This document shows positions 62,035 through 64,000 of a DNA stretch of 64,000 bases, one piece after another (position 1 is the stretch's first letter; every line of letters begins with the position of its first letter). Made by a program: the position numbers and the translations under genes. The stretch spans positions 160,001-224,000 of the forward strand of contig JAZSKX010000014.1 of assembly GCA_045535075.1 (NCBI GenBank). Reading direction: 5' to 3'. The notes below the pieces were generated by a model that was given only the letters and a program-made list of their open reading frames with translations, had not been told where the DNA came from and ran no database searches. The stretch is from Candidatus Spyradenecus sp. Lineage in GTDB: Bacteria > Verrucomicrobiota > Verrucomicrobiia > Opitutales > UBA953.

Positions 62035-63207
62035 TTATTTCCCGGGAAAATTCTCGTCGGTAGAAAAAGCTACTAAAGCAACTTTAATTTTTCGATGAAT
62101 GCGCAATAGCGACTTAAGAAGAGCTGCTGACTGGGGCGAAAGTCCCTGTTTTACAAGGAATTCTGCTTGGTATTCCAGGGTAACGAGTGCTTGTGTGAGA
62201 TTCACTTGACATCTCCCATGGTCTCTAAATCCAGGGAAACCTCTATTGATAAAATTGGAGGCAGGACAAGTGTAGCAAGTGTGTTTAATCGGACACCCTT
62301 GGCAGTAGGGGTCGTTGTGATATTCTAGGCGCTCAGGTCTGTAATCAGCAAAAACACGTGCACGTTTCCCTGCACATACCGGGGAAAACATACTGCATGG
62401 ATATAGCACCCCATCCACATCATAGCACACCTTTAGCATACCTGCGCCACAGCGCTGGGAGCAGGGAGCGTCTGAATCTTCTCCACCTTTGAAAAAAGGT
62501 TCAAGTAGTGTTGGTATTACTTGTGGAAATTCAATGTAGAATTGTTTGAGCTCTCGCAATTGGGCTTCTAGGGTAATCGCGTCTTCGTGCGACCACGACA
62601 CACCATTTGCCAACTGGGCCCGCAAAGAGTACCCTTTTTCTGTTGCAGTACGTATATCTTTTGCCACTGTAGATACAGTGGCAGGACTAACAGTCATACG
62701 AAAAGACATGTCCGGCCACTCACATCGGCAAAACTCTAGAGCAGATTCAGAAAAGCAACCACGATTTTGGTGTTGTGCAGAAGTAGAACCGTCATAACTG
62801 ACAGTAAGAACCACCATATCTTTATTCTGGCGAAACCATTCCTTCATTTCATCATTCAATAGTGTACCATTCGTGATTACCATAAACATGGTGGGACACA
62901 CCTGTGCGCGAGGGCGCGCCCACGGAACTAGCTTCTTTATTAACTCAAAATTCAACAACGGTTCTCCTCCAAACAGCTCTACCAGCAGCCATGAAAAACG
63001 GGGATCCTGCCGCACGAGATTCATCTGCTCACTCACACAACGCTGAGCCGTAACAAAATTCATTGAGTGCTCCGTTTTAAAATGCTCGTAACAATAGGAA
63101 CAATTCAGATTGCAACTTCGCGTCAAAATAAGCGTACACGTTTTGTTTTTACGCCTAGTAAGAGGAGGTAATTGTTCGATAATCGGGGTTAATGCTAGTT
63201 CTTTCAT
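62035..63207 (-). CDS. Radical SAM/SPASM-domain protein (putative peptide maturase)
   Basis: CNLNCSYC, FGGEPLL, TNGTLL, SYDG; SPASM-like CGAG…DG..YPC…C..C…C..CP…N…C; start set to ATG 63207. Confidence 0.92.
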   Translation of the reverse strand: MKELALTPIIEQLPPLTRRKNKTCTLILTRSCNLNCSYCYEHFKTEHSMNFVTAQRCVSEQMNLVRQDPRFSWLLVELFGGEPLLNFELIKKLVPWARPRAQVCPTMFMVITNGTLLNDEMKEWFRQNKDMVVLTVSYDGSTSAQHQNRGCFSESALEFCRCEWPDMSFRMTVSPATVSTVAKDIRTATEKGYSLRAQLANGVSWSHEDAITLEAQLRELKQFYIEFPQVIPTLLEPFFKGGEDSDAPCSQRCGAGMLKVCYDVDGVLYPCSMFSPVCAGKRARVFADYRPERLEYHNDPYCQGCPIKHTCYTCPASNFINRGFPGFRDHGRCQVNLTQALVTLEYQAEFLVKQGLSPQSAALLKSLLRIHRKIKVALVAFSTDENFPGK

Positions 63208-63222
63208 TAGAGTGATATAGAA

Positions 63223-63262
63223 CATCCGGCACACGAAGAGATAATGTCTCGAGTGCCGGATG
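63223..63262 (-). other. Stem-loop between the small peptide ORF and the downstream radical SAM gene
   Basis: Perfect 10-bp inverted repeat CATCCGGCAC…GTGCCGGATG with an inner GAGA/TCTC stem. Confidence 0.7.
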
Positions 63263-63278
63263 GAAGCGATTTTTCTAC

Positions 63279-63422
63279 TCAGTCAGCAAAAGTACATTTG
63301 TACCCATCGCAACAACCGATGCAACCGGACTTCATTTCTGTAAGGAAGCCGTCAGCCTCGCTAACGACACCAAATTCCGTCTCGAACGCATCAAGTACGG
63401 CTCTAATCTGTAGTTCTGTCAT
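63279..63422 (-). CDS. Putative RiPP precursor peptide, 47 aa: MTELQIRAVLDAFETEFGVVSEADGFLTEMKSGCIGCCDGYKCTFAD
   Basis: Translated manually; ATG after an AT-rich leader, same strand as the two flanking rSAM genes; acidic leader plus a 4-Cys C-terminal core. Confidence 0.72.
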   Translation of the reverse strand: MTELQIRAVLDAFETEFGVVSEADGFLTEMKSGCIGCCDGYKCTFAD

Positions 63423-63484
63423 GATTTTATATTATTTATTTTGTCGTTTTTTCTTTCTTGCCGACACCATATCGGCAAAATTTG

Positions 63485-64000
63485 TTATATGGTCGCAAGC
63501 TTCCTTTCAATTTTCTTACAAATGCGTAATAAAAATTTGAGTATCGCTGCTGATTCTCGTGTTAGAGGTTCACGAATTCTTATTTGTTGTTGAAGTTCTG
63601 CCGTAACGAGTGCTTGGGTCAAATACATATGACACATCCCATGATCCCGCAAAGAAGTATGTCCTCTAATCGCATAGTTCATTCCGTAACATGTAGGACA
63701 CCAGTGACGTATGGGACATCCTACGCACGTGGGATCTTCACGTGCACTTTCTTGAGTCAAATCAACTTCAGAAAGGGGCATGTTCTTTTCCCCTACGGTC
63801 AACGGCGTAAACATTTGGCAAGCGTAGGTTCGACCATCGACATCGTAGCAAGTGCAACGTGTTCCGCTCCCGCAAGCTACTACACCGCTTATGTCGGCAT
63901 CTTCCCCCCCCTTGAAAAACCGATCGAGTAATGTGAGTGGTAGATTCTGATCTGCTAAAAATGCATTTTTTAACTTGCGACACTCTTCCAAAAAGAGAGA
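63485..64000 (-). CDS. Second radical SAM/SPASM protein, C-terminal part (5' end outside the window)
   Basis: Frame open to the window edge; FFKGGED…CGSG…YDVDG..YAC.MF…C..CPI.H.C.TC…RDHG.C…LTQALVT closely parallels the 62035-63207 protein. Confidence 0.88.
   Translation of the reverse strand, partial: SLFLEECRKLKNAFLADQNLPLTLLDRFFKGGEDADISGVVACGSGTRCTCYDVDGRTYACQMFTPLTVGEKNMPLSEVDLTQESAREDPTCVGCPIRHWCPTCYGMNYAIRGHTSLRDHGMCHMYLTQALVTAELQQQIRIREPLTRESAAILKFLLRICKKIERKLATI

Follow-up and report, generated by a model that had tools for sequence, protein, structure and literature searches.

Several enzymes that combine a radical S-adenosylmethionine (SAM) domain with a SPASM domain have been described, and they differ in the bonds that they make. 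Excerpts of two reports state that, within CXnD motifs (n of 0 to 6), PapB connects a Cys with Asp or Glu (PMC9413430), and that it also joins Cys to a C-terminal residue (PMC12373016). QhpD, with its substrate QhpC, is a SPASM enzyme that makes Cys-Asp/Glu thioethers (PMC10114670, in excerpt), and ChlB makes C-C three-residue cyclophanes on aromatic motifs (PMC12912966, in excerpt). Sections of a field review list substrate recognition by SPASM enzymes that have no RiPP recognition element (RRE) as an open question (PMC10114670). The locus analysed here comprises two radical SAM/SPASM enzyme genes, rSAM-1 and rSAM-2, and a gene for a 47-amino-acid (aa) Cys-rich peptide. It lies in 64,000 nucleotides of a Candidatus Spyradenecus genome (G000:C1:160001-224000; genome 1.95 Mb, 99.45% complete), and this whole stretch is called the window below.

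It is very probable that the peptide is a precursor of a peptide that is ribosomally synthesised and then modified post-translationally (RiPP) and that the enzymes are its maturases. The fuller account, a self-contained maturase-precursor-maturase cassette from an uncharacterised, RRE-less radical SAM/SPASM branch, is reasonably likely as a whole. The placement of the cassette as a divergent branch of a large, unnamed, unstudied and RRE-less precursor family is strongly supported by sequence comparison.

A Conserved Precursor Gene

On the minus strand, rSAM-1 is followed by a 47-codon open reading frame (ORF) and then by rSAM-2, as seen both in the window's ORF listing and in the DNA. A preliminary description of this DNA had already placed a Cys-rich ORF between two paralogous enzymes, and the order stands. 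It had also called the ORF hidden. The ORF is indeed absent from the ORF track on which that description drew, but an identical 47-aa protein is already recorded from 4 contigs in a collection of 5.8 billion proteins.

The peptide has the sequence MTELQIRAVLDAFETEFGVVSEADGFLTEMKSGCIGCCDGYKCTFAD. No orthologue of it, the metagenomic version described next included, is on record in the same collection. Because only the window's own protein was found there, orthologues were read from DNA. A metagenome scan yielded one locus only, contig L097, in which all three genes recur in unchanged order and the encoded peptide has 46 aa, MTESQIQAALAAFEADFGTVNEADGCVAEMKSGCIGCCDSYKCSIE.

Between the window and L097, the peptide genes differ at nonsynonymous sites by 0.164 (pN) and at synonymous sites by 0.772 (pS), the latter being saturated. 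The nonsynonymous differences of the flanking enzymes, 0.244 and 0.270, are above the value for the peptide. The core of the L097 peptide is CIGCCDSYKCSIE, and it shares with the window core C34, I35, G36, C37, C38, D39, Y41, K42, C43 and a terminal Asp or Glu.

The ORF can also be recovered by profile. Against a family profile that lacks it, it ranks first of 779 small window ORFs (E 3.3e-4; runner-up 0.79), and the leader alone scores E 2.8e-3 (runner-up 15) against a profile built without window rows. Residues 1-33 are the leader, an amphipathic helix of acidic character, one face of which carries I6, V9/L10, F13 and F17. Taken as a conserved coding gene under purifying selection, the ORF is strongly supported.

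A Larger Family of Precursors

In 1.84 billion proteins, a profile of 14 peptides picked out 117 representative clusters when the threshold was E<=1e-3 and 9 when it was 1e-10; 113 of the 117 clusters are of 100 aa or less. An earlier profile of four peptides had missed most precursors with CxxxC cores, which the larger profiles recovered.

Short ORFs whose products have a helical leader of similar type and a Cys-rich core usually follow related enzymes and occasionally precede them. Of 20 other loci with a related enzyme, 16 have a precursor-like ORF beside it by the family profile. The loci came in part from a scan of genome contigs by full-length alignment. That scan relied on generic radical SAM patterns, and most of its 80 loci are distant enzymes; L017-L023 alone were used. 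In the preliminary description, a similar peptide was expected beside homologous enzymes and the locus was taken for a RiPP-type cassette with a genuine precursor. Both ideas are borne out by this adjacency, and the second also by the orthologue and the family profile.

In the relatives, a typical precursor has 55-70 aa and about six Cys, with C-[S/T]-G-[S/T]-C as the consensus of the repeated unit. Across the family, 482 of 641 Cys-Cys intervals show a spacing of 3. Cys makes up 20.7% of core residues and is the sole constant feature of the cores; aromatic residues are not conserved. Other short cores are found in L017, L019, L101 and L126. By alignment, the window peptide is an atypical short core on a family-type leader.

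The cassette has an enzyme inside the homologue clade, a leader homologous to those of the family and a precursor that adjoins its enzymes, and these features tie it to the unnamed family. The preliminary description had recognised no family for the core. That view holds insofar as the cassette falls below all NCBIfam cut-offs and is not of the SCIFF, subtilosin, mycofactocin or PQQ type, but the leader connects the peptide to the 117-cluster family. In literature on CXXX-repeat radical SAM systems, no paper was found on the family or on CXXX-repeat chemistry.

Distant family loci can carry accessory genes: a Clp-type protease in L125, an M18 aminopeptidase in L126 and an ABC transporter in L020. 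L125 (615-4276) lies on an unverified phage contig from human faeces and encodes a radical SAM enzyme, a 62-aa CxxxC precursor, a 150-aa protein, a second radical SAM enzyme and the protease. L126 (1830-4843), on a plasmid of Phocaeicola massiliensis, encodes a radical SAM enzyme, a 47-aa precursor with the core NSCGCSGDCGSNW, the aminopeptidase and a second copy of the precursor. Two variants of the enzyme were also seen. In L104 (G088:C1:194473-195486), a family enzyme has an in-frame TAG and no adjoining precursor was found; this may be a decaying copy. P0027 is a family enzyme of 584 aa that is fused to ankyrin repeats.

Two Duplicated Enzymes

In a pairwise alignment of their C-terminal halves, rSAM-1 and rSAM-2 are 45% identical. 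FFKGGED, CYDVDG, RDHG.C, LTQALVT and SAA.LK.LLRI are invariant between them, in agreement with the shared C-terminal motifs claimed before. Pfam finds only Radical_SAM and Fer4_12 in both.

The SPASM criterion (TIGR04085) is a motif of seven or eight Cys, CX9-15GX4C ... CX2CX5CX3C ... C, that binds two auxiliary clusters. rSAM-2 shows this motif in C262, C280, C311, C314, C320, C323 and C342, spaced C262-x12-G275-x4-C280; C311-x2-C314-x5-C320-x2-C323; C342, with a last spacing of 2 rather than 3. Every one of the 16 aligned sequences has the CxxxCxxC motif and the seven SPASM Cys. The TIGR04085 model scores 17.8 bits on the rSAM-1 fragment, below its cut-off of 27. One further Cys of rSAM-2, Cys270 (about 62425-62427, in CYDVDG), occurs throughout the 7 members of the twin-enzyme clade that were aligned. 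In its place, the 9 more distant relatives in the alignment have Thr. Cys270 could be a fourth ligand of auxiliary cluster I.

Counted from Met10, rSAM-2 has at most 31 residues before CxxxCxxC, and rSAM-1 has at most 60. These short N-terminal stretches leave no room for an N-terminal RRE, and the absence of a fused RRE, as first described, is thereby upheld. No PqqD/RRE match was found in either enzyme or anywhere in the genome.

In all, 1631 proteins are homologous to the enzymes at E<=1e-3, the best 120 of them at 33-63% identity over 69-99% of the query. The closest database relatives carry the label Akkermansia sp. In a quick maximum-likelihood tree (SH-aLRT support only), an rSAM-1-type clade of 12 rows (support 99) and an rSAM-2-type clade of 10 rows (support 91) lie inside one clade of 25 rows (support 98). 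The 25-row twin clade groups (support 82) with a 38-row group of mostly single-enzyme CxxxC loci. Since the paralog clades are nested in this way, the pair is read as a lineage-specific duplication, which the sequences strongly support. Both paralog lineages occur together on the window contig and on L097, and, to judge from the equal lengths of their longest contigs, apparently also in three further pairs, P0007/P0020, P0008/P0017 and P0013/P0019. Most family loci have a single enzyme with a CxxxC-repeat core. Second enzymes are found too in L020, L102/L108 and L125, and at least those of L020 and L108 belong to a very distant branch.

It could be argued that only one paralog is a working maturase and that the other is redundant or serves as a non-catalytic leader-binding partner or chaperone. 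One enzyme suffices in most family loci, and the helix predicted to dock the leader (see below) is kept in both paralogs. Against this, both have CxxxCxxC and all seven SPASM Cys, both lineages have been retained on the window contig, on L097 and apparently in the three further pairs, and their nonsynonymous differences are similar. A single working maturase is thus improbable. With all cluster-binding cysteines kept, both paralogs are apparently active.

Nearest Curated Families

Among NCBIfam models, the best match for both enzymes is PapB (NF047865), at 112.8 bits for rSAM-2 and 100.2 bits for rSAM-1 with a cut-off of 340. PapB is likewise the best model for six scanned relatives, at 120-137 bits. 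It is followed by nif11-type, CXXX-repeat, CcpM, QhpD and SCIFF maturases. The CXXX-repeat maturase model (TIGR04115) gives 86.4 bits for rSAM-2 and 74.5 bits for rSAM-1, with a cut-off of 350. The SCIFF maturase (TIGR03974) reaches 68.8 bits of a required 425, and the anaerobic sulfatase maturase (anSME; TIGR03942) 41.1 of 349. Cyclophane formers are weakly detectable, YhhB at 48.3 bits and AmcB at 33.9 bits.

The window peptide has no match at E<=1 to the TIGR04117 target model (cut-off 50 bits), and three of ten scanned peptides match it weakly, at 16.9-19.2 bits. Judged by these scores, PapB and the CXXX-repeat system are the nearest curated neighbours of the enzyme branch. Because all curated scores are far below cut-off, chemistry cannot be transferred by homology.

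The AlphaFold (AF2) model of rSAM-2 has a predicted local distance difference test (pLDDT) score of 83.4, and two long helices at its end span residues 339-363 and 367-392. By fold, it is matched best by CteB (5wgg; E 7.5e-16, TM 0.62), then by anSME, then by ChlB.

A Possible Docking Site for the Leader

A complex model of the peptide with rSAM-2 scored 0.64, and the best control scored 0.02. The mark of 0.64 was attained by 116 of 157 solved complexes and, among 215 mismatched pairs, by 2. At least 51% of contacts are common to the three runs, and the partner pLDDT is 64 or higher. The confident contacts connect leader residues 1-30 (I6, V9, L10, F13, F17 and 20-30) with enzyme residues 354-380, including the SAALLKSLLRI helix. 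Cys37 of the core is modelled in contact with residues 249-251, 262-263 and 323, near the FFKGGED motif and the SPASM cysteines.

According to this model, the amphipathic helix of the leader (about residues 3-30) would dock on the C-terminal two-helix hairpin at 354-380. The hairpin would replace the missing RRE and feed the 14-residue core toward the SPASM/active-site region. In rSAM-1, the second contact helix is almost unchanged (SAAILKFLLRI), which fits both enzymes reading the same leader.

Candidate Chemistry

The nearest characterised enzymes, by sequence and by fold, form Cys thioethers, and together with the conserved core residues this favours thioether rings. By analogy, Cys thioether chemistry has slightly better than even prospects. 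In the proposed mechanism, each enzyme would use a SAM-derived 5'-deoxyadenosyl radical to abstract a hydrogen from an acceptor carbon. This carbon would then be joined to a Cys sulfur, and each thioether ring would change the mass by -2 Da. For some rings, the likeliest acceptors would be the conserved Asp39 and the C-terminal Asp/Glu, as with PapB and QhpD, although at least one Cys-to-Asp/Glu link remains a tentative suggestion by analogy. The two paralogs would probably differ in the rings that they place on the peptide. Genes outside the cassette would serve for removal of the leader and for export, if these take place.

A different chemistry in the same cassette is conceivable: a C-C cyclophane-type link at Tyr41-Lys42, epimerisation, C-methylation or an anSME-like oxidation of Cys. 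Tyr41-Lys42 is conserved between the window and L097, the cyclophane formers YhhB and AmcB score weakly but detectably, the best fold matches include anSME and the cyclophane synthase ChlB, and no curated cut-off is reached. Across the family, however, only Cys is constant in the cores and aromatic residues are not conserved, and the top neighbours in sequence and fold, PapB, QhpD and SCIFF/CteB, form thioethers. Non-thioether chemistry is therefore considered unlikely.

In a more far-reaching reading, the cassette is a streamlined offshoot of its class: the enzyme duplicated in this Akkermansia-family lineage while the core became reduced to 14 residues. The duplicated enzymes and this core might together yield a compact polycyclic peptide in which Cys-Asp/Glu links are combined with a second type of link. 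This more specific outcome is rather doubtful.

Several points weigh against the thioether-forming cassette of the unnamed family that is proposed here. The profile that lacks the window ORF was made from matches of a profile that contains the window peptide, so the ranking is mildly circular and its margin modest, and the tree is a quick version. The window core breaks the CxxxC rule of the family, with Cys spacings of 2, 0 and 4, and the L097 core ends in CSIE and not in CX3D. The profile finds no precursor in 4 of the 20 other loci (L018, L021, L101 and L104), although in L101 a candidate precursor is visible by eye. The cassette has neither a peptidase nor an exporter, and the genome has no C39 peptidase match. 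Every curated family score is far below its cut-off. The complex job used custom alignments and riding ligands, which puts it outside the calibration of its score; peptide-bound SPASM structures exist (CteB, SuiB and ChlB), and the score may be partly memory. Finally, the placement of the core in the complex model hangs on one residue, Cys37.

Gene Layout

The coordinates of the cassette are collected in Table 1.

Table 1. Features of the twin-enzyme cassette, in window coordinates.
Feature	Position	Strand	Basis or remark
rSAM-1, last 171 codons and stop	63485..64000	-	5'-open ORF in window
Stem-loop between rSAM-1 stop and peptide start, UUUUGCCGA...UCGGCAA	63456..63480	-	-13.2 kcal/mol, z -4.44
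Precursor peptide gene, 47 aa and stop	63279..63422	-	ORF listing, orthologue, family profile
Leader, residues 1-33	63324..63422	-	aligns with family leaders; complex model
Core, residues 34-47, CIGCCDGYKCTFAD	63282..63323	-	4 Cys, Asp39, C-terminal Asp47
Strong stem-loop directly 3' of peptide stop	63223..63262	-	-27.8 kcal/mol, z -5.01
rSAM-2, 390 aa from Met10 (most likely start)	62035..63207	-	homologue starts; AF2 model
rSAM-2 radical SAM cluster motif C41-x3-C45-x2-C48	63091..63114	-	invariant, 16-sequence alignment
rSAM-2 SPASM-type region, seven invariant Cys and G275	62209..62451	-	16-sequence alignment
rSAM-2 C-terminal two-helix hairpin, residues 339-392, with SAALLKSLLRI	62059..62220	-	predicted leader-docking element

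rSAM-1 passes the end of the window and reaches the window-equivalent position 64717 (L004:1986-3218). On the extended contig, the full protein has 410 aa from the first ATG, or 392 aa as called in P0021. The frame of rSAM-2 is open from a GTG at 63234, which gives an ORF of 399 aa (62035-63234). Its start is most likely Met10 (MKELALT), as in the homologues P0003 and P0007.

The gap from the rSAM-1 stop to the peptide start is 62 nt. Its sequence is 75.9% identical between the window and L097, compared with about 61% for the enzyme genes, and its stem is also found in L097 with a different loop (-12.6 kcal/mol, z -4.52). After the peptide gene, L097 has a hairpin at the same place but of unrelated sequence (-28.1 kcal/mol, z -4.39), followed by UUUUU. 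The hairpin after the peptide may be an attenuator or a transcript stabiliser that sets the ratio of precursor to enzyme transcript. A scan for sigma-70 and terminator consensus found fewer sites than in shuffled sequences; at the cassette, the coding strand had none. No RNA data set was listed as containing the 1966-base stretch. Of two contig-only runs compared with it, one contained near-identical DNA and the other short pieces, neither of which bears on expression.

Genomic Surroundings

In the two closest sister species, a DHH phosphoesterase gene is directly followed by a gene for an 866-aa membrane protein. Here, the two are separated by a 5.9-kb insert with rSAM-2, the peptide, rSAM-1 and two PEP-CTERM proteins. 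This island covers window positions 61986-64000 and continues beyond (L004:487-6933). Its GC content is 43.7-48.7%, compared with 51.9% for the window. At E<=1e-40, the enzyme is absent from 136 of 136 other representatives of the bacterial family; at E<=1e-25, it occurs in 10 of 400 other genomes of the phylum. That the cassette sits in an acquired low-GC island is strongly supported.

Upstream of rSAM-1, the island encodes an 811-aa protein with Chlam_PMP repeats and a 246-aa Laminin_G_3 protein. The PEP-CTERM motif is a Pfam match in the 246-aa protein, and the 811-aa protein has a similar tail by eye. The preliminary description expected the cluster to continue past the window and suggested extending the contig in search of an RRE, a peptidase and an exporter. 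Beyond the rest of rSAM-1, only these two surface proteins were found; none of the three functions is present in the cassette, and the genome is without PqqD/RRE or C39 matches.

The neighbours of the L097 cassette are ankyrin-repeat proteins and not PEP-CTERM proteins, from which it follows that only the three cassette genes travel together. For the same reason, a link to the PEP-CTERM neighbours was rejected. Carriage of the window cassette by a phage or plasmid was rejected as well, since only distant family members, at 29.6-34.9% identity, are found there.

These surroundings also bear on whether the enzymes mature proteins, either as anSME does or by acting on the neighbouring PEP-CTERM proteins, with the short ORF being incidental. 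Two PEP-CTERM proteins do lie in the same island, and anSME is a good fold match. But purifying selection acts on the ORF, related enzymes across phyla are accompanied by precursors of the family to which it belongs, and its peptide is predicted to dock on the enzyme. Moreover, the L097 neighbours are of another kind and the anSME model scores far below its cut-off. Protein maturation is thus very improbable.

Other genes nearby were noted. Just upstream of the L097 cassette, among the ankyrin-repeat genes, two tandem paralogous genes (L097:597-740 and 797-937) encode hydrophobic peptides of 46/47 aa (MFYVLALIVGF...). In the window, 59083-60894 on the minus strand encodes a 603-aa M60-like (enhancin-type) metallopeptidase that has a HELGH motif and, at its C-terminus, a tail rich in Lys and Glu. 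Beside it, at 57916-59037, is an LptF/LptG permease gene.

Significance

What is novel here is an unnamed, RRE-less, twin-enzyme variant within the radical SAM/SPASM systems that act on Cys-rich peptides. The Akkermansia family is prominent in the gut, and no described RiPP of this type was found in its literature (apparently surveys and reviews). The larger family has at least 117 precursor clusters and more than 1600 enzyme homologues, and it extends over gut Bacteroidales, Clostridia and Verrucomicrobiota, a plasmid and a putative phage contig.

As it consists of two enzymes and a 47-aa substrate with a 14-aa core, the minimal cassette offers an easy entry to the chemistry of this family. 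The predicted docking on the hairpin offers an explanation of substrate recognition by SPASM enzymes without an RRE, and one that can be tested directly. If the rather doubtful reading with a compact polycyclic peptide is true, an RRE-less class of SPASM enzymes reads its substrates via a C-terminal hairpin and staples Cys ladders. The ring topology of the product and its function in the gut, be it as a signal, an antimicrobial or a metal binder, would then be without a described counterpart. The significance is tempered by the many such families that still await chemistry; the cassette is nonetheless a compact, testable case.

Comparison with Known Systems

PapA/PapB (freyrasin). Like the window enzymes, PapB is a radical SAM/SPASM enzyme that acts on Cys-rich cores. 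Its model aligns over nearly the whole of its 330 positions to the window enzymes and the six relatives, at 100-137 bits. The window core ends in one CX3D unit (C43-D47), which is a PapB motif (PMC9413430, in excerpt), and C34, C37 and C38 lie near D39. The L097 orthologue ends in CSIE, that is CX2E, unlike the CX3D of PapB. Freyrasin has six CX3D units and one enzyme; in the window, two enzymes go with a single precursor that has four Cys. In the excerpted text, leader binding by PapB is presumed to occur via an RRE (PMC9413430), which the window enzymes do not have.

CXXX-repeat system (TIGR04115/TIGR04117). Relatives of the window enzymes are likewise followed by peptides with a leader and CxxxC repeats. 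The TIGR04115 model aligns from its first positions and, like the window enzymes, has no N-terminal RRE. The window enzymes and their relatives score 74.5-115 bits, below the cut-off given above. TIGR04117 targets have a Cys at every fourth residue, unlike the window peptide with its irregular spacing.

CteB/SCIFF (thermocellin). CteB (5wgg/5why) is the best match among solved structures both by sequence (E 6.6e-13) and by fold, and like the window enzymes it is a SPASM enzyme that works on Cys-rich peptides. Its structure was deposited under a title on thioether bond formation. The sequence match begins at CteB residue 97, and the N-terminal region before it, which we take to be the RRE, has no counterpart in the window enzymes. 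The window precursor is not SCIFF-like.

QhpD/QhpC. The QhpD model scores 72.8-85.6 bits on the window enzymes and their relatives, with a cut-off of 453. QhpC is the gamma-subunit of quinohemoprotein amine dehydrogenase, unlike the window peptide with its leader and core, and amine dehydrogenase genes are absent at the window locus.

ChlB. This SPASM enzyme of 375 residues was solved with the leader of its precursor bound (9gm3/9gmc), and it matches the fold of rSAM-2 with a TM of 0.58-0.59. Since the sequence match begins at ChlB residue 7, ChlB is, like the window enzymes, without an N-terminal domain of the size of an RRE.

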